Shown: in pieces, positions 2-31,955 of the stretch
Position numbering within the stretch: the stretch's first letter is position 1
How the letters are laid out: each line of letters starts with the position of its first letter
From: a virus
Length of the DNA stretch: 31,955 nt
Virus genome (UHGV): UHGV-0175171
Reading direction: 5' to 3' (one strand)
Notes under the pieces: model-generated
Database searches by the model: none
Told to the model about the DNA's origin: nothing
What the model saw: the letters and a program-made list of their open reading frames with translations, nothing else
Position numbers and translations under genes: made by a program

Positions 2-1738
2 GCGGAAAACTTAAATCTGTATGTGAAAAGGATACGTTTACTTGAAACAATGGATGATCCAGAAGCTGTAATTCTGTGTGATCAGGGGGTATCAGCTTTT
101 AAGGGTCTGAATATATCTGAAGGTGAGCTTGGGCGATGGATGGAACAAGTACAGGCTGGTATGTGGGACGGTTCACATTTAGTACTGGAATCGATCGATA
201 GGTTCAGCCGCCAAAACCCCTTTACCCTTGTAGGTTATCTTTCACGTTTGGTTGAACATGATATCACGCTACATGATGTGTCCCTAAACCTGCTGATTAA
301 CCGTTCTAACAGTGCGATGTTACCAATCGTTACTATGTCAGCACAGCGTGCATATGAGGAATCGAAAATCAAAAGTGATCGTATACGCGATGGGTGGAGA
401 CGGAAGAGGGAACAGGCATTCAATAACGGTACAATCGTTACTAACAAGCGTCCACAGTGGATTGATATTCGTGATGATCAATATGTATTGAATGATAAAG
501 TGCATATAGTAAAAGAAGTATTTCGCCTCGCACAGTCCGGTATTGGTACACCTACTATTGCCAAGATACTAAATGCAAAGGGTGATGACTGGCTTTTCGA
601 AAGTGGGCGGCAGTGGCGGGGTGAATCAGTACATAAGCTTTTAAAGAATAAGCGTGTGACTGGTTCAATTTTTATTAGTGAAATTATTCGTGATTATAAT
701 AGTACTTCAAATCCAGTAGACCAGAAACGATATGAAATGGACGTGTACCCAATAGTCATATCAAAGGAAGAGTTTAATTTAGTACAGCAATTACTACGCT
801 CACGACGTGCCAACACTGGACGAATTAGTACGAATAAAGATACTGATGAATTGAAGAAGTCAAATATCTTTAATAGTATCTGTAGGTGTGGGAAATGTGG
901 TGAGGCAATGTATCATAATGTTGTTAAGTCTCACCGCAACTCAAAAAAGAATGGTAAGTTCACTGAAGAGTATAGATACATTCGGTGTCTTGGGGAACGT
1001 GATAATCTATGTGACAATAAAGCACTACGTTATGAGGTAGTAGAGCAGTTTGTTCTTGAATACCTAAAAGGTATGGATTTTTCCCGTATATTAAAACCCA
1101 ATAACCACAAAAGTGAGATTGATGTACTGAGACTCAATATCGATGAAGAGAAGAAGCATATCAGGGAATACCGTCAGGGGATTGAAAAATTAAAATCAAT
1201 GGGGAAGAAGGTTCCCTTTGATGTGCTGGTAGAGCTTGAGGAATCGCAGAAGCGACTAAGTGACCTTGAAGAAAAAGAAAGTAAGTATACAGATTTAACT
1301 GTTGATACTGAGTACTTAAAATCTGTTGATCCTTCTGTACTATTTGATCAGGGTAACATTGAAGTACGTTCCAGGATTGAAAAGGAATTATCAATGCTAC
1401 TGGAGAGTATCGTACTACATAGACTTGATAAGCACTATATAATCACCCTTGAATATACACAGGTCAACATACTTAAACATGTACTTTTTATTGAGGCTGG
1501 AAAGATTCCAGTACTAATGTCTACTCTTAGTATTGAGAAGTACAATGATGAACATATCTATACTATGCCTTCTTTTTCTATAAGGTGCGGAGAGGGAGTG
1601 CCAGAAATTCATGGTGAGGCTATAAGCCTGGTAGATTACTCCCTTCTATTAAACTACATAGATGGTGTTGATGGTTCAGAGTATGTTTCGGAGTGGATGC
1701 GAACAAATCAAAATTTTATCTTTAGTAAAGAAACTTGA
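2..1738 (+). CDS. large serine recombinase (phage integrase type), 5'-partial: reading frame is open to the window edge
   Basis: ORF 23..1738 has no stop upstream in frame (frame opens at nt 2). Resolvase-type motif ESIDRFSRQ, a recombinase domain, a Cys-rich zinc ribbon (CRCGKCGEAMYH...IRCLGERDNLCDN) and a C-terminal coiled-coil region, the layout of large serine recombinases. The catalytic-Ser N-terminus is expected upstream of the window. Confidence 0.85.
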   Translation, partial: AENLNLYVKRIRLLETMDDPEAVILCDQGVSAFKGLNISEGELGRWMEQVQAGMWDGSHLVLESIDRFSRQNPFTLVGYLSRLVEHDITLHDVSLNLLINRSNSAMLPIVTMSAQRAYEESKIKSDRIRDGWRRKREQAFNNGTIVTNKRPQWIDIRDDQYVLNDKVHIVKEVFRLAQSGIGTPTIAKILNAKGDDWLFESGRQWRGESVHKLLKNKRVTGSIFISEIIRDYNSTSNPVDQKRYEMDVYPIVISKEEFNLVQQLLRSRRANTGRISTNKDTDELKKSNIFNSICRCGKCGEAMYHNVVKSHRNSKKNGKFTEEYRYIRCLGERDNLCDNKALRYEVVEQFVLEYLKGMDFSRILKPNNHKSEIDVLRLNIDEEKKHIREYRQGIEKLKSMGKKVPFDVLVELEESQKRLSDLEEKESKYTDLTVDTEYLKSVDPSVLFDQGNIEVRSRIEKELSMLLESIVLHRLDKHYIITLEYTQVNILKHVLFIEAGKIPVLMSTLSIEKYNDEHIYTMPSFSIRCGEGVPEIHGEAISLVDYSLLLNYIDGVDGSEYVSEWMRTNQNFIFSKET

Positions 1739-4044: not shown

Positions 4045-4159
4045 ATGGTTCGCATAATACCCGTTTAGTTCGCATAATAGGGCATAATGCGACTTTTGCG
4101 ATCCTCTGTAACCCTTGGTATGACTGGGTTTGTCAATTATGCGAACCATTATGCGACCT
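4031..4159. repeat. cluster of at least five copies of a ~10-bp motif TTCGCATAAT / ATTATGCGAA in both orientations (iteron- or operator-like)
   Basis: Copies at ~4031-4041 (degenerate), 4048-4059, 4067-4078, 4136-4148 and 4148-4159, plus the related GCATAATGCGAC at 4082-4093; followed by a very AT-rich segment (4160-4225). Confidence 0.6.
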
Positions 4160-4695
4160 TATTATAATTATATTTTTCTATTTGATATTTTAAGTATATG
4201 TAATCGCCATATTATCATATGAAGTGATAATGCTCGTAAACTCGCATCATCACTTAAAATAAAAATAAGGGATAAACTTGCGTTTTTTGCAGTCCCTTAC
4301 GGAACTACAAAAGCACGCCCGGTTTCCTGACTCGCTGTAGCTCAGACAACAAAAGTGATTTGGGTAGTACAGTACTGACTTAAAGTGTTTGGGGTCGGAC
4401 TGACGTCCTAAAGTATTAGTGAGTTCTACGCGTCGCATAGCTCCTTGTCTGGGTCGTTCGCTGTTAAAGCTCACTAAGGTACTCAGGGACTTCAGTACTG
4501 ACATACTATCAATTAAGTACTCCCATGTACTCAAACCCAATGTAATTAATACAGTGTGACGCCGCGAAGACGGAGGAACACGCCACCCGCCGAAAGGCAT
4601 ACTATGAGGAAATGAAAGTGAGTAGGGGAACAGTGTAAACCAATCAGACAAGGAAATAAACTGACCTTTTGCACCTAGATATTACTAATAGAACT

Positions 4696-4731
4696 TTATT
4701 CAAAACACCAGATGCAATTAAAAATCTGGTG
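4696..4731 (-). terminator. intrinsic terminator of the minus-strand cassette
   Basis: Stem caccagat/atctggtg (8 bp, 10-nt loop) followed on the minus strand by TTTTG, immediately downstream of the stop of gene 4747..5343. Confidence 0.55.
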
Positions 4732-4746
4732 CTTGAGGTCTCATGC

Positions 4747-5343
4747 TTATTTGGGAAAGGTAAAAATTTCTTCAATATTCATCTTTAATGATTTTGAGTC
4801 GAGGATTATTTTATCTTTGAGGTCATTGAGACTGGAAATCATCAACTCAGGTCTATCATCAGAGACTACTGATCTAAAAACAATAATACCAAAGGCTTCA
4901 TTATAGTATTCCGTTAATCTGTAAAATGACTCTTTTAATTCTTTTGGATATGTTATTTTCCAACGTGCACATGATGATAGTTTTGATGATAATTCAAACG
5001 TTTCATATATCTGTTTAGATATTTGTGAGGACAAATTCTCAAATTTTGATTCTGACGAACGAACAGTAATGATATCAAAATGCAATTCTTGTATCTTTAA
5101 TACCTGTTGGTCATATTCAGCCATAACAGCGGTTACATGATTAAACCCTGCTTCATTGTTCTTTGTCTGTAGCCAATGAGGGGCTGCTTTGAATGCTTTA
5201 TAAGCAACCCAAGCAGTAAAGGCCGTACTGGATGCACTAATCCAATCCGTGAAACTCCCCCATTCAACATCATTGAAAATATATTTTATCAAAGAGGCAC
5301 CTAAAAGTAGAAAAAGTATTATTTTTAGGGTTGATTTATTCAT
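4747..5343 (-). CDS. membrane protein with two N-terminal TM helices and a helical cytoplasmic domain; paralog of 5355..6065
   Basis: ORF; N-terminus MNKSTLKIILFLLLGASLIKYIFNDVEWGSFTDWISASSTAFTAWVAYKAF shares the inter-helix motif (F/V)EWGSFTDWISASS with the adjacent gene. Confidence 0.6.
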   Translation of the reverse strand: MNKSTLKIILFLLLGASLIKYIFNDVEWGSFTDWISASSTAFTAWVAYKAFKAAPHWLQTKNNEAGFNHVTAVMAEYDQQVLKIQELHFDIITVRSSESKFENLSSQISKQIYETFELSSKLSSCARWKITYPKELKESFYRLTEYYNEAFGIIVFRSVVSDDRPELMISSLNDLKDKIILDSKSLKMNIEEIFTFPK

Positions 5344-5354
5344 TGTCTAATGCC

Positions 5355-6065
5355 TTAAAAATAAATGAAAAGTGTATTTAATGCACGATTATTTGAAAAA
5401 ATGTAGGTTTTGGCTTCTGATAGATGCGTTGATAATCTAATTGTATTAGGGATTAAGCTATCAAAAGTGTTATACATCTTGCGTCTTACGTGGTCAAACT
5501 CAGACATTTTTAAACCCCGCAATAAAGCTATTATATTACTAATGTGTCGAATTAATAATTCGACGGTATTTGTGACCGCAGTACATATTTTTTCAAATTC
5601 AGATGTAGGCTTGTAACGAAATAACTTCATTACATTAATGTCATTTTCTAACTGCTGAGATGTAACTTCCAACTCAGTAATGGCATCAAGTAAATATGCT
5701 TGCATTGACTCTAAAACAGAGTCTTTAAGATGGTGATCATATCCATTAACTCTATGCCTATAGTTTTTTAGTTTGAATTCAATTTTCTCAATAGTAATGA
5801 ATAGTTTTGGGTAATGCTGTGTAATAATTTGTTTTTGCAGCAAGTAAGCATCATCTCTATATTTGTCTTTTTGCCAACGAGAGTAGACATAGAATGCAAA
5901 AATCAAAGTGATAATACTGGAACTTGCACTGATCCAATCGGTGAAACTACCCCATTCAAATCCCTTACTACCAGAAAATAGAATCTTAACGAGAACTAAG
6001 ATAGCTACAAATAAAAGTAGCGAGACTAGGCCAATAAGGGTAGTGTTTGCAATTTTAATATTCAT
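5355..6065 (-). CDS. membrane protein with two N-terminal TM helices and a helical cytoplasmic domain; paralog of 4747..5343
   Basis: ORF; motif GFEWGSFTDWISASSSIITLIFAFYVY. Its start overlaps the stop of the upstream gene (ATGA at 6062-6065), suggesting translational coupling. Confidence 0.6.
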   Translation of the reverse strand: MNIKIANTTLIGLVSLLLFVAILVLVKILFSGSKGFEWGSFTDWISASSSIITLIFAFYVYSRWQKDKYRDDAYLLQKQIITQHYPKLFITIEKIEFKLKNYRHRVNGYDHHLKDSVLESMQAYLLDAITELEVTSQQLENDINVMKLFRYKPTSEFEKICTAVTNTVELLIRHISNIIALLRGLKMSEFDHVRRKMYNTFDSLIPNTIRLSTHLSEAKTYIFSNNRALNTLFIYF

Positions 6066-6613
6066 AATTTATCAGCTATGTTAATTTCACTATAGAGTAA
6101 GTCTTTCAATTTAATCAAAGCTTCCCAAATTTCAGTTGGCTTATTGCTGCAATTTCTTAGTAATATTTCATCATTTTCATATTTACTCAATGATGGATCA
6201 TAAAACCGTGTTCCTAATTCTTGAAAATCATTGATAGCATTAGTAACCGTCCAAATCGCATCATGCATTTGTGGTGTCATGTATAATGTATAATCAAGAA
6301 GGAAGTCACTTGCTTTACTTTTAATTAAATCCTGTTTATAAAGCATAATTTGATCTAAAAGATCACCATCATCATAAAAATTAAAATTTGCTGGAAGATT
6401 CAGGGAATTAATGAACTGAATGAAAGGTTTAATAATTTGCTTTTTTTCTTTCAATTCATCTTCGAGTACTTTGAATAATAGTTGCTTTTTAATCTTTTCG
6501 TTTTCAGATTTTTTAGTGATGAGTTGACTTGCCAATGTTACACCCGCAGCTATTAAAGCACCGCCTAAAGTACCGCCGACTGCAATGAGTTGTGTAATGG
6601 TTTCAGCTTCCAT
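6062..6613 (-). CDS. membrane-anchored protein (one N-terminal TM helix, helical soluble domain), unknown function
   Basis: ORF; N-terminal ITQLIAVGGTLGGALIAAGVTLASQLI hydrophobic segment followed by a KE-rich helical region. Confidence 0.55.
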   Translation of the reverse strand: MEAETITQLIAVGGTLGGALIAAGVTLASQLITKKSENEKIKKQLLFKVLEDELKEKKQIIKPFIQFINSLNLPANFNFYDDGDLLDQIMLYKQDLIKSKASDFLLDYTLYMTPQMHDAIWTVTNAINDFQELGTRFYDPSLSKYENDEILLRNCSNKPTEIWEALIKLKDLLYSEINIADKL

Positions 6614-6680
6614 GATTTTAGAAATCCAATATATAAACGTGAAAAAAGAATTTTACCATAATAACCAATTTGACGTAAAC

Positions 6681-6757
6681 TATCAGCGATATCCCCCTCC
6701 CATAAAGGGTAGGTGGTTTGTTTAGTTTGTTGGTGTGTGAGGGGGATATCGCTGATA
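6681..6757. repeat. perfect 19-bp inverted repeat (TATCAGCGATATCCCCCTC ... GAGGGGGATATCGCTGATA) with a 39-nt G/T-rich spacer
   Basis: Read directly: arms at 6681-6699 and 6739-6757. A second hairpin (gtgctgc/gcagcac, 6761-6780) follows immediately. Confidence 0.7.
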
Positions 6758-6863: not shown

Positions 6864-7778
6864 TCAGCAGTTTCTTACGATTCTATCGTATCGTTCTACA
6901 AAAGTTATTATTTTCAACTGATCTTGATTATATGTATCAACCCATTTCTTCATAGCATCTTCTATTATGTAGAGAAAATCAACAAGGTTAAAGTAGGTCG
7001 TATCCCCAATAGTGGTTGTCTTAAATGAATTTCTTTGATGTATTGCAAAACTAATTCGTCTCACCTTCTCTTGTTTTACTTTCTGACTATCAAGATTAGA
7101 CATATGTATTAATGAATTGCGGAGTTCCCAAAGCTCATCAGAAGTAACTTCCAAAGAAGATAAATCTGCATAGGTGTTAAGCCATTTTGTAAAGTTATGG
7201 TGCTGACCAAAATCAACCCAGGCAATTGTATCAATGAATGAAAAAAGTAACTTTATGCAGCTTAAGTAATGTTTATTATTAAATAGATAGTGAATTGGTT
7301 CAAAATGATCATCCTTAAGAAGTTGAGCCATGTCAAAAGTATTACCGACATAGTATTTTGAAAGATAATCATTATGATTTGAAAATTCGTATCCTGAGAA
7401 TTTATCAATATGATGTTGACGAAGTGGTTCAAAATCTAAACGATGTTGGTTCATTATTTTACCGTTCTGGATTGGGGTAATCAAATGTAAGCAGTCATCA
7501 CCAAGATTATAAGGTGCTAAAACATCAGAGAAAATTAAAGTCAAATTGTCTGTACGCATCATTGCATTAATTTTTGCTAATGAAACTCCATTTTCTTTAT
7601 CTTTGATTTCTTGTGGAATATCACCAAAATTTGCATCTGAAAGGTCAAGGCCAACTTTAGATAAGAGGAAATGACACATTTCCTCTTCTGTTCCTGAATG
7701 CTCATACAGTACAAAAGCAACATGTGTTATTAAATCATCAGTTGCGAAGTAATATAAGTTAAGAAGTTTATGTTTCAT
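6864..7778 (-). CDS. hypothetical protein with an R-N-x3-H (HEPN-like) motif; candidate abortive-infection or RNase-type effector
   Basis: Start moved to the ATG at 7778 (GGAGGA RBS, 5-nt spacer); the track start at 7790 is a GTG. Motif ELRNSLIHM at residues ~220-225 fits the HEPN R-[N]-x3-H signature. No other domain recognised. Confidence 0.5.
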   Translation of the reverse strand: MKHKLLNLYYFATDDLITHVAFVLYEHSGTEEEMCHFLLSKVGLDLSDANFGDIPQEIKDKENGVSLAKINAMMRTDNLTLIFSDVLAPYNLGDDCLHLITPIQNGKIMNQHRLDFEPLRQHHIDKFSGYEFSNHNDYLSKYYVGNTFDMAQLLKDDHFEPIHYLFNNKHYLSCIKLLFSFIDTIAWVDFGQHHNFTKWLNTYADLSSLEVTSDELWELRNSLIHMSNLDSQKVKQEKVRRISFAIHQRNSFKTTTIGDTTYFNLVDFLYIIEDAMKKWVDTYNQDQLKIITFVERYDRIVRNC

Positions 7779-7790
7779 AAGTTCCTCCAC

Positions 7791-28754: not shown

Positions 28755-28779
28755 AAAGGGGCTTAATGCCCCTTTTTTA
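28754..28779. terminator. strong bidirectional intrinsic terminator
   Basis: Perfect stem aaaaggggc/gcccctttt with a 5-nt loop, between the convergent stop codons at 28752-28754 (+) and 28777-28779 (-); T-runs on both sides. Confidence 0.8.
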
Positions 28780-29223
28780 TTTGTTAATTAAATCTTTAAT
28801 CATTTGGTCAAGTCTATTCGGTGTCTGACGATACCATAAACTATCCTTTGCCTGTTTAATTGCTTCTGTATAATTATTGTTTTGTAATGCAATGATCATC
28901 TTTTTAAACTTCTTAGTACCACCTAAGCCTAACTGAAAAATCATAATAACCATGAAGTCTTCCCAGTCCTGTGGTAATTTCAAATTTAAGGTAGATAAAT
29001 CACGTTTGGCAATGCCAATATCTTTATCCAGTAGTTTATCTGCTTCATCCTCGTTAATGCCGTTAGAGAACGATTCAGAGGCTTTTAGTAGATGTCCATA
29101 TCCAATCGTATCTTTGTTCTCACTACATTTATACACCCAGAATTTACCATTGCGATAATAACCCATATGGGCTTGGTATTCTTTCGTACCTTCATATACT
29201 TTTAATTTTTCTCTTAAACACAT
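28777..29223 (-). CDS. endolysin, T4-type lysozyme (glycoside hydrolase family 24)
   Basis: LKVYEGTKEY...TIGYGHLL and SLWYRQTPNRLDQM match T4 lysozyme LKIYKDTEGYYTIGIGHLL and SRWYNQTPNRAKRV (recalled). Start placed at the ATG at 29223 (GAGG RBS); the ORF is open to 29277. Confidence 0.85.
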   Translation of the reverse strand: MCLREKLKVYEGTKEYQAHMGYYRNGKFWVYKCSENKDTIGYGHLLKASESFSNGINEDEADKLLDKDIGIAKRDLSTLNLKLPQDWEDFMVIMIFQLGLGGTKKFKKMIIALQNNNYTEAIKQAKDSLWYRQTPNRLDQMIKDLINK

Positions 29224-29259
29224 AAATACCTCATAAATTATTGTTTGTGGGGTATTTAT

Positions 29260-29688
29260 ATGAAATGGACAATGCATGATCCTGAGACATGGGATTATGA
29301 AGATATAAATGACGGGAGGTATGCAGCTTTTGTATATATGATCACTTTTGACGATGGTTCATATTATTTTGGTGTAAAGTCAATCTTCAAAGGTATTCGG
29401 GATGTAAAGAAGCTGAAGCCAACTACAAAGGAATCCAACTGGGAGAATTATTATTCTTCCTCAAAGAAAGTGCAGGCAATGGTCGATTCAGGTCTGAACT
29501 ATGAAAAACAAATACTATGGTGTTTCAGTACGACGAATGAAGCCGAGCAGGTAGAAGCGGCGTTGATTCTATTCTTAGGACAGCAATCAAATAATTTGAA
29601 TCTTGCCGTGATGTGTAAAGTACGGCTTGGTAAAAATCGTTCTGAAACATTCAAAGTACTGCAACAATTATTAGAGAGGTTATCATGA
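29260..29688 (+). CDS. free-standing GIY-YIG nuclease domain protein
   Basis: AAFVYMITFDDGSYYFGVKS (GIY...YIG motifs), downstream conserved Arg and an acidic NEAEQVE segment with a terminal Asn; ~143 aa with no obvious DNA-binding extension. Confidence 0.55.
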   Translation: MKWTMHDPETWDYEDINDGRYAAFVYMITFDDGSYYFGVKSIFKGIRDVKKLKPTTKESNWENYYSSSKKVQAMVDSGLNYEKQILWCFSTTNEAEQVEAALILFLGQQSNNLNLAVMCKVRLGKNRSETFKVLQQLLERLS

Positions 29689-30609: not shown

Positions 30610-30900
30610 ATGATAAATGCAATCTCCGTATTAATTAGTACGATAATGAGTCTTTTTACAAAGACAAAAATAATTGAAAAAGAGGAACATAAAACTAACA
30701 CTGATGGACAGATTGAGACAAATAAAATTGAAATTGAGCAAAACACCTTTCACTGGAGAAACTTCCTTGGTTTTGTACTTTCCCTAATCATTTTATATAA
30801 TTGGATAATTGTTCCTGTTCTTGATGCGTTTGGTATTGTATTAATACAAATTCCACTAGGTGAGCTACTACAGATACTTTTAATCATGGTGGGTGGTTGA
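30610..30900 (+). CDS. small membrane protein (2-3 TM helices), holin-like
   Basis: 96-aa ORF with an AAGGAAA RBS; hydrophobic N-terminus and two C-terminal hydrophobic helices; in the neighbourhood of the endolysin. Confidence 0.4.
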   Translation: MINAISVLISTIMSLFTKTKIIEKEEHKTNTDGQIETNKIEIEQNTFHWRNFLGFVLSLIILYNWIIVPVLDAFGIVLIQIPLGELLQILLIMVGG

Positions 30901-31584
30901 CTTAGTAATTACAAATAATGACCTCCAGGTGTTCATCCAAGATGTAGATAGAATCTGTGTTAAGGCATAGCATTGATTGAAGCTAATTTGATTGAACTCA
31001 TATGATTTTTTACGAGCCATGCCATTAACATCTTTATATGAAAAGATCATCATTTGGCTAAGCTCTGAAAATTTATATAAAGTACTAATGTACTGGGTTA
31101 TGCCATCTCGTTGATCTGGTCTTATTTCGATTTCCCAAACTTTTAATATGTCTTTTTGTGAAGAAAGCACAGATAAATGAGTTTTAAAATCTAACCATAA
31201 TGTCTCAATTTCATTATTGAGTTTTTCATAATGTGGGTCTGTTTTTCCCAAATTTTTGGTGCCTAAATAGCAATACATATTCATTATGTGCTCAAATACT
31301 TTTTCTGACTTTAATTTAGCATCGGATAAATGAACAATAAAATTATTTGCTTGTTCGAATCCTTTCGTATGTGTCTTTTCATTGTACCAATTTTTGACTT
31401 TATATAGTGTATAAGTAGCAATGCTTGCCAATACTGTATCCATAATGGCAGATACAGTAGAACTATTAAATTCATGAAAACCTAAGACATCTATATATAT
31501 CGGGATCAGTATTCCGACTGCTAAACAAGCTATATGAGAAAATTTAATTTGTTTAACTAATTTTTTAAAATGATGTTTTTTCAT
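30880..31584 (-). CDS. membrane protein with two N-terminal TM helices; third member of the 2-TM family seen at 4747..6065
   Basis: Inter-helix segment GFHEFNSSTVSAIMDTVLASIATYTLY resembles GFEWGSFTDWISASSSIITLIFAFYVY of 5355..6065. Start uncertain (ATG at 31584 preferred over the TTG at 31626; no clear RBS). Confidence 0.5.
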   Translation of the reverse strand: MKKHHFKKLVKQIKFSHIACLAVGILIPIYIDVLGFHEFNSSTVSAIMDTVLASIATYTLYKVKNWYNEKTHTKGFEQANNFIVHLSDAKLKSEKVFEHIMNMYCYLGTKNLGKTDPHYEKLNNEIETLWLDFKTHLSVLSSQKDILKVWEIEIRPDQRDGITQYISTLYKFSELSQMMIFSYKDVNGMARKKSYEFNQISFNQCYALTQILSTSWMNTWRSLFVITKSTTHHD

Positions 31585-31653
31585 ATAAGAGATTTTAATC
31601 ACCGATGAATAGATTGTCGAATTCAAGAGTTCTCAGATAATCTTATGATCTAC

Positions 31654-31688
31654 AAAGCCCGCAGTAAATTGAGCGGGCTTTATTTTTG
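31654..31688 (+). terminator. intrinsic terminator-like hairpin
   Basis: Stem aaagcccgc/gcgggcttt with a 10-nt loop, followed by ATTTTTG; lies between two minus-strand genes, so the strand served is uncertain. Confidence 0.45.
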
Positions 31689-31695
31689 CTAATCA

Positions 31696-31905
31696 TTACC
31701 AATCCCAGTTAACTGTAGTGTTTAAACCACGCAGATTAGTATGTTCTGTTCGTGTCGCTGTGAGCACAACTTCACCAGTACCTTTTGTGACAATATCAAA
31801 GACTTCAATTTCTGTTTGTCCCATTGTCCCTTTGGTTCTAAAGCTCTTACGTACGTAGCTATATTGATCTCTTGGATAGTTATTTTCAAATTGTTCATCT
31901 GTCAT
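31696..31905 (-). CDS. hypothetical small protein (69 aa)
   Basis: ORF with a strong minus-strand RBS (AGGAGA, 8-nt spacer, ATG). Confidence 0.5.
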   Translation of the reverse strand: MTDEQFENNYPRDQYSYVRKSFRTKGTMGQTEIEVFDIVTKGTGEVVLTATRTEHTNLRGLNTTVNWDW

Positions 31906-31955
31906 TGGTCAACTCTCCTAGTAGTTTCAAAATCATAAAACATTTTGTGCAGGTA

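Follow-up and report, generated by a model that had tools for sequence, protein, structure and literature searches.

Two kinds of described protein are among the closest to the family reported here. SieB of lambda and P22 (PF14163) is an abortive 'superinfection exclusion' protein transcribed independently of the lytic operons, and is a small prophage protein (184 aa in lambda) in which two hydrophobic segments at the N terminus precede a soluble C-terminal part. The membrane effectors of abortive infection (SLATT proteins with two transmembrane (TM) helices, CBASS and Pycsar TM effectors, RexB, Csx28, and MisC of Metis) combine a short membrane anchor with a cytoplasmic helical domain, lie in defence islands, and are proposed to oligomerise and to depolarise the membrane. 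In this work we analysed the virus genome UHGV-0175171 (31,955 nucleotides, hereafter the window), a prophage of Escherichia coli in which a gene near the right end, T, and a tandem pair near the left end, B and C, encode small proteins that share this general plan, with a predicted membrane hairpin followed by a helical bundle. We conclude with high confidence that T, B and C are three diverged paralogues of one family, whose relationship is remote.

30880..31584, minus strand: T, the target gene, 234 aa, ATG start
5355..6065, minus strand: B, paralogue, 236 aa, architecture as in T, loop motif GFEWGSFTDW
4747..5343, minus strand: C, paralogue, 198 aa, 11 bp downstream of B

T is a genuine gene, since it has 37 homologues (E <= 0.01) across the Enterobacteriaceae (E. 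coli, Cronobacter, Klebsiella, Enterobacter, Kluyvera, Citrobacter). None of the 37 is named or carries a Pfam domain; the T protein of E. coli FDN-24 is labelled hypothetical in RefSeq (WP_131199723.1). Two alignments were used throughout, A1 for the T homologues (37 sequences) and A2 for B, C and their homologues (12 sequences). Compared with SieB, the likeness is limited to architecture and lifestyle and no sequence relationship is detectable: hhalign of lambda SieB against A1, A2 and a further alignment, A4, gave probabilities of 0.1–0.2%, T, B and C have no PF14163 match at E <= 1, and homology with SieB was rejected. The family differs from the abortive-infection effectors in that no signal-generating enzyme is consistently adjacent to it and that the variable domain is part of the same polypeptide; SLATT_1-6 and the PADLOC effector models did not match T, B, C, the related protein P0067 or other members. 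The 4HB_MCP domain (ligand-binding domain of Tar and Tsr) and the histidine-kinase sensors share fold class only, with 3–10% identity and with de novo designed bundles scoring equally. These sensor domains are periplasmic and lie between two TM helices, whereas the family has both membrane helices ahead of a bundle that is predicted to lie in the cytoplasm.

Relationship of T to the tandem pair

The first-pass annotation had proposed that T is the third paralogue of the tandem pair, a proposal borne out by profile and structure methods and not by pairwise BLASTP. BLASTP aligns B with C over the N-terminal 108 aa (E 2e-8), and is not significant for T against B (E 1.5) or T against C (E 4.5). 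Profile comparison of A1 with A2 by hhalign gave a probability of 95.2% (E 2.5e-8, score 61, 124 columns, 11% identity), in a match that begins in helix 2 and continues through the soluble helices. When the bridging sequence P0048 (listed in 274 blocks of the contig collection) was removed the probability was still 92.3%, and the aligned columns, 89–195, lie wholly in the soluble part. Compared with the score of 61, reversed alignments scored 14–15 and 20 column shuffles scored at most 24. Hidden Markov model (HMM) searches against all open reading frames (ORFs) of at least 60 aa in the window were reciprocal: the A1 model retrieved besides T just B (E 1.2e-7, 24 bits) and C (E 4.5e-6), and the A2 model retrieved besides B and C only T (E 6.4e-7), with modest cross-family scores (19–24 bits).

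The two groups are also joined by intermediates. Among 1.84 billion cluster representatives the A1 profile found 186 proteins (E <= 1e-3), several of which are matched by B and C too. The bridging protein P0067 aligns by BLASTP with T over 191 aa (E 6e-8) and with C over 142 aa (E 2e-9), both alignments spanning the soluble L-K-x-W-K-I segment, and many proteins of related viral contigs score strongly with both HMMs, as does that encoded at L029 9983–10663 (A1, 6.7e-23; A2, 7.3e-32). Motifs read from A1, A2 and A4 are common to T, B and C, namely the loop GF[EH]..., S-A in helix 2, W-x3-K-x4-GF, L-x2-W and a C-terminal F, with the exception that the second W of these motifs is F in B; C has its hairpin in common with B, and its W-x3-K-x4-GF and R-W-K-I motifs in common with the T family.

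The AlphaFold models of T (mean predicted local distance difference test score 81) and B (88) have an identical order of elements, the helices (H) and strands (E) being H15–36, H41–107, H117–149, E152–154, H156–182, H188–217 and E224–226 in T, and H3–30, H41–105, H115–149, E151–153, H155–187, H191–223 and E233–235 in B. In both models the L-x2-W segment that follows helix 3 forms a small beta-bridge with the C-terminal F strand. Searched against BFVD at E <= 1e-3, each model gives the same two structures and no others, A0A8S5QRM6 and A0A8S5QRD7, which are uncharacterised proteins of Myoviridae sp. ctoNH1; this virus, too, carries paralogues, in its case two. A weaker BFVD match (E 4.6e-3), P51700 of HP1, is an ORF in the int–cI region, also a lysogeny-module position. 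At 13–15% identity and with no assigned function, none of the three adds a mechanism. The profile match in soluble columns, the reciprocal HMM searches, the bridging proteins and the shared models together show that the likeness of T to B and C goes beyond generic TM hydrophobicity.

T starts with a lysine-rich tail (MKKHHFKKLVKQIK), followed by TM1 (about residues 15–36), the loop HEFNSS, helix 2 (43–62), which is rich in Ser, Thr and Ala and runs unbroken into the first bundle helix in the model, and a four-helix bundle (helices 41–107, 117–149, 156–182 and 188–217); the motifs lie at W66-x3-K-x4-GF, L-x2-W150 and F224. Of the two N-terminal TM helices described in the first-pass annotation, helix 1 is strongly hydrophobic (Kyte-Doolittle mean 1.82) but helix 2 is just marginal (1.42 on average in the family, about 1.15 in T). 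The mean number of lysines plus arginines in 121 family sequences is 3.4 before TM1, 1.0 in the loop and 3.9 after helix 2, a distribution that, by the positive-inside rule, most likely places both ends of the hairpin, hence the bundle, in the cytoplasm.

The residues that A1 shows as invariant are concentrated in the hairpin and juxtamembrane region (S16, G24, Y30, D32, S42, T43, S45, A46, M48, D49, T50, V63 and W66), and W66, K74, E77, W150 and F224 are invariant or nearly so. The conserved hairpin bears a stripe of small and polar conserved residues and has an inter-helix loop of 6–10 residues. Mean pairwise identity is 63% in the hairpin and juxtamembrane region and 23% in the bundle (minimum 7%); the bundle is hypervariable in sequence, on a fold that is constant as modelled. 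Hairpin and bundle are evidently modules reshuffled by recombination: the chimeric protein P0013 is 96% identical to P0004 over residues 1–56 and 37% identical thereafter, and is 62% identical to P0010 in the first part and then 92%. Both the contrast between hairpin and bundle and the chimera justify the earlier description of the family as diversifying.

Cargo slots of the prophage and its relatives

The prophage in the window is about 32 kb long (G+C content 37.7%; 30–33% in cargo genes, about 40% in structural genes), a composition that is strongly AT-rich for an E. coli element. Its insertion, by a large serine recombinase, splits the host ybhA gene, of which a 77-aa N-terminal and a 204-aa C-terminal fragment flank the prophage. 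This ybhA arrangement, with the phage copy described next, was read at L001 8934–10153 and L004 1275–1886. A full-length phage ybhA homologue (281 aa, 60–69% identical to the host fragments) lies just past the right window end, directly behind the host ybhA promoter fragment and oriented to receive host ybhA transcription, and looks like compensation for the disrupted host gene; the same homologue is present in Enterobacter and IMG/VR relatives, at 79–83% identity. The family genes occupy two cargo slots, a left one between the early genes and the small terminase gene, and a right one between the holin-like gene and the ybhA replacement.

6864..7790, minus strand: E, 308 aa, first gene of the cluster E-D-B-C, left cargo slot
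6062..6613, minus strand: D, 183 aa, one N-terminal TM helix
30610..30900, plus strand: holin-like gene, 96 aa, closing the plus-strand operon, inner edge of the right cargo slot
31933..31955, minus strand: 3' end of the ybhA-like HAD phosphatase gene, the remainder of which is past the window end, outer edge of the right cargo slot

T is convergent with the holin-like gene, which it overlaps by 21 bp, and its G+C content of 30.1% is the lowest among the genes measured. IMG/VR searches with A1 and A2 yielded 37 loci with the same gene order, in which one to three family copies lie in tandem between the small-terminase gene and the early genes, and one or two by the holin-like gene; three contigs are on both the A1 and the A2 lists and so have members in both slots. 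Circularity was avoided by re-sampling the lineage with anchors unrelated to the family, the large terminase and a 197-aa late protein. In the 38 loci anchored on the large terminase gene for which 4.5 kb or more precedes the small-terminase gene, the left slot holds the family in 25 (one copy in 18, two in five, three in one and four in one) and lacks it in 13. The right slot, counted in the 15 loci that extend 800 bp or more past the holin-like gene, holds one or two copies in six and none in nine, and in E. coli N61, whose late region is 97.7% identical, an unrelated 225-aa gene occupies the position of T. These absences, and copy numbers that vary from 0 to 4 on the left and from 0 to 2 on the right, argue that the family is variable cargo which the phages can do without, rather than a core function, in agreement with the first-pass annotation, which had called it accessory rather than structural; accessory hotspot cargo is very likely the right description. 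The orientation opposite to the late operon, also pointed out there, holds for T, B and C, which are all on the minus strand opposite the structural operon, but it is not a rule of the family. Two convergent copies are found at the right end in L116 (6293–7870), L120 (6367–8042) and L020–L022, and in L116 and L120 one of them shares the strand of the late operon and follows the holin-like gene directly.

The other contents of the slots in relatives include known defence genes, for which reason both slots are, as judged from annotated gene content, defence or conflict hotspots. The other left-slot ORFs fall into 128 cluster representatives, in which PADLOC (v2.0.0) recognises methyl-directed restriction enzymes, Old, RT/DRT UG17, UzuA (Uzume), PARIS AriA, GajA-type ATPases and several PDC candidates, and Pfam recognises the OLD TOPRIM domain, AAA_15, mSLOG, DUF4326 and 8xMP, and also Hcp, Tlde1 and EAL. 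The right slot has 10 representatives, among which are AbiGi (E 1.7e-50), two HNH effector-like proteins (E about 1e-22, with 8e-23 for one), a toxin-like RelA/SpoT-domain protein (PDC-S33) and two DUF3800 proteins. The Hcp, Tlde1 and EAL genes are type VI secretion and signalling-related cargo, not anti-phage alone, and in L127–L131 (4482–5790; A3), which are common E. coli relatives, the left hotspot contains a module of Hcp, DUF1493 and DUF8209.

One slot companion deserves attention, 8xMP (PF24838), an octameric membrane protein family that shares the cargo slot with the family and is a separate protein with more TM segments. Six of the 10 distinct 8xMP genes have a same-strand family gene at a distance of -25 to 113 bp, and 8xMP lies beside family genes, often overlapping them, in L045, L046, L048, L065, L073, L091 and L127; P0082 (461 aa) is a fusion of 8xMP and the family domain. 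8xMP has no match in PADLOC, the window contains no 8xMP gene, and T, B and C contain no 8xMP domain.

Candidate functions of the family

The presence of recognised defence genes in both slots of related phages leads us to regard the family as rather probably a prophage-borne anti-phage protein expressed in the lysogen, a view that comes from the location of its genes. The first-pass annotation had suggested superinfection exclusion or abortive infection, which the slot location supports, but no known exclusion or abortive family is matched. We favour an abortive sensor–effector, given a variable part with a predicted cytoplasmic location and a conserved part that forms a membrane hairpin. The variable cytoplasmic bundle would recognise a product of the infecting phage, upon which the conserved hairpin, alone or with an 8xMP-type membrane protein, would form an assembly by which the inner membrane is depolarised or permeabilised, and infection would be aborted; several paralogues per phage would then provide several specificities. 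This sensor-coupled membrane-effector mechanism is tentative and, taken by itself, rather doubtful, while the explanation as a whole (paralogues, exchangeable cargo, lysogen protection, sensor–effector) is evenly balanced between right and wrong. An unlikely extension of it is a new type of single-polypeptide abortive receptor, in which a pore-forming or gating hairpin would be joined to a bundle that recognises phage proteins, with arrays of two to five paralogues, modules recombined for specificity, and a subset gating an octameric 8xMP channel.

Several observations weigh against this anti-phage sensor–effector. Its main evidence, the company of defence genes in the slots, is circumstantial, and the slots also hold conflict cargo that is not defensive (Hcp, Tlde1, EAL) and many unknown genes. 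The family has no match in PADLOC, PHROGs, Pfam, NCBIfam or the PDB, and its structure matches generic four-helix bundles (chemoreceptor and histidine-kinase sensor domains, designed proteins). The hydrophobicity of helix 2 is marginal, and failure of this helix to cross the membrane would put the bundle in the periplasm, in favour of a model in which injection is blocked. The divergence of the bundle could result from weak constraint rather than from an arms race. Finally, the upstream region of T holds fewer promoter-like sites than shuffled sequence, so the promoter evidence is weak.

The main rival is superinfection exclusion at DNA entry, in which genome injection would be blocked without killing of the cell, as by T4 Imm, HK97 gp15 and P22 SieA. 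A prophage-borne inner-membrane protein encoded in cargo slots fits this function, and so does the strong conservation of the hairpin and its short loop (GFEWGS / GFHEFNSS), which could bind a conserved membrane component of the host or phage. Nevertheless, the positive-inside rule places the fast-evolving bundle in the cytoplasm, the predicted periplasmic loop is only 6–10 residues long and is conserved rather than diversifying, and the family shows no likeness to exclusion families in Pfam or PHROGs. We consider entry blocking unlikely on these grounds; it would become the favoured explanation if helix 2 does not cross the membrane.

A membrane role in the phage life cycle, either in the timing of lysis as an antiholin or holin partner or in the anchoring of replication or assembly, is distinctly improbable. 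It would account for the convergence and overlap of T with the holin-like gene, which in some relatives is followed by a family copy on the same strand, and it could suit a small prophage in whose early genes a Pfam scan found no replication domains. However, the family is missing from 13 of 38 left and nine of 15 right slots, with zero to four copies, and members are also found in a degraded island of E. coli 55989. No holin or spanin family is matched and no embedded lipoprotein ORF is present: neither Pfam nor PHROGs matches T to a holin family, a lipobox is missing from the embedded ORFs, and the family is dispensable, so that identity with a holin, antiholin or spanin was rejected.

Still less probable, to the point of being very hard to sustain, is a two-gene system in the manner of type II Metis, formed with the HAD phosphatase encoded next to T. 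In Metis, the HAD phosphatase MisB restrains the membrane effector MisC, a sensor of a nucleotide danger signal; the phosphatase is paired with an unannotated membrane protein for which octamers are predicted, and the MisC–MisB operon of E. coli 2862600 was earlier shown, according to the preprint on this system, to defend against T7 (bioRxiv 10.1101/2025.11.05.686725). A co-oriented HAD phosphatase gene does lie directly upstream of T, at only 27 bp in Enterobacter. This gene is the YbhA homologue, though, and is also present without a family gene (L109, L124), and both its identity to the split ybhA and its independence of the family make replacement of the host gene the best reading. Moreover, a HAD neighbour is lacking for B, C and most family members, PF13419 is the family given for MisB while the neighbour of T is of the PF08282 type, MisC has three TM helices and T at most two membrane helices, and T matches nothing in PADLOC although the MisC–MisB pair of E. 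coli 2862600 is reported to be defensive. Weakest of all, and hardly credible, is the notion that the likeness of T to B and C is spurious, arising from generic membrane-helix composition and helical propensity: non-significant pairwise BLASTP, low hhalign identity and modest HMM scores would be compatible with it, but in the soluble region a signal survives that is far above both kinds of control, reversed and shuffled, both HMMs give high scores to bridging proteins and to many intermediates, and the models share their element order and their sole significant BFVD neighbours.

If the anti-phage sensor–effector reading is correct, the family is a candidate anti-phage family that has so far gone unrecognised: PADLOC v2.0.0, Pfam, PHROGs annotations and NCBIfam all lack it, although it is common in prophages of E. 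coli, Enterobacter, Klebsiella, Citrobacter, Kluyvera and Cronobacter. The natural recombination of a conserved hairpin with a variable bundle would make it a tractable model for the coupling of membrane effectors to sensing, and also for the diversification of defence repertoires through tandem duplication in temperate phages. Two defence hotspots are defined in a lineage of serine-recombinase phages that integrate in ybhA, in which many unknown genes can be mined, and the uncharacterised Pfam family 8xMP is linked to a partner.

The searches that delimit the family were as follows. T, B, C, D and E gave nothing above threshold in Pfam, PHROGs, PADLOC and NCBIfam; for T, CdiA_C (E 0.0017) and Hydrolase_3 (E 0.02) were matched weakly, short of the cut-offs, and were taken as noise. 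A sequence search of the PDB with the family profile gave no match, megablast and tblastn against isolated phages found no relative of T, and a profile search of genome contigs with A1 returned pattern matches none of which was confirmed as a relative. No family member is named, and the 8xMP fusion is the only one with a Pfam domain. The label DUF4760, attached in UniRef to one relative, was rejected, as Pfam scans of that protein and of nine others show no such match. A literature search found no paper describing 8xMP, DUF4760 or the ybhA prophage lineage.

Flanks of T, left cluster and other features

The sequence between T and the ybhA replacement gene contains the following three features.

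31696..31905, minus strand: 69-aa ORF between the phage-borne ybhA-like gene and T
31654..31681, minus strand: hairpin AAAGCCCGC-N10-GCGGGCTTT, between the 69-aa ORF and T, read from the sequence
31592..31620, minus strand: promoter-like site TCGACA-17-TAAAAT, 10 of 12 matches, ending 8 nt before the T ATG

Expression of T in the lysogen is likely, given that T is downstream of and co-oriented with the ybhA replacement gene and has a promoter-like site of its own. In Enterobacter hormaechei the replacement gene and the T relative are separated by just 27 bp, and in the E. coli version the 69-aa ORF and the hairpin lie between them; the 69-aa ORF matches no family and is missing from the Enterobacter version of the locus. 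The hairpin is terminator-like with a weak U tract, was missed by the automated scan because its loop exceeds 8 nt, and would cut T off from upstream transcription. TCGACA-17-TAAAAT, called as a bare consensus match, is the sole good promoter-like site upstream of T. The T ATG is preceded by no recognisable Shine-Dalgarno sequence, and since the promoter-like site is only 8 nt away from this codon the leader is possibly short or absent, that is, the T mRNA may be leaderless or nearly so.

In the left cluster, the stop codon of D (6062..6613; L003 8113–8664) overlaps the start codon of B (ATGA), which couples the two genes translationally, and D is a possible partner of B, as far as gene order can tell. 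A D homologue adjoins a B-like gene in E. coli 55989, in a degraded island ridden with insertion sequences that has two family members, and a SMODS + SLATT pair lies about 2.3 kb away from it. Positions 5951..6756 of the window, which take in the D homologue together with the beginning of the family gene next to it, match 88 further complete E. coli genomes at 88.6% identity. D was rejected both as a hidden family member (hhalign 0.4%) and as an 8xMP protein. Gene E contains ...ELWELRNSLIHMS..., in which RNSLIH resembles by eye the Rx4H motif of HEPN RNases; it has weak PHROGs matches to families of unknown function and nothing in Pfam or PADLOC, and a homologue is found in L083, also in the left slot, beside an 8xMP gene.

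The 700-bp gap between convergent genes at 4045..4746 has a G+C content of 40%, above that of its neighbours, and opens with repeated GCATAAT / TATGCGA motifs that are operator- or iteron-like. About 100 bp of it (4371..4470) is 82% conserved in L044, and the ORF listed at 4250..4651 is probably spurious. Rfam and tRNA scans of the window, this gap included, were empty.

The recombinase of the prophage is encoded at its left end.

23..1738, plus strand: large serine recombinase (Resolvase, Recombinase and Zn ribbon domains), left end

Among the isolated phages of INPHARED there is no match at the DNA level (megablast), and the closest large terminase is 33% identical. Within the plus-strand late region, a phage lysozyme gene on the minus strand (28777..29277) overlaps the start of a gene for a SegE-like GIY-YIG endonuclease (29245..29688, Pfam E 1.2e-16), an arrangement conserved across the lineage.

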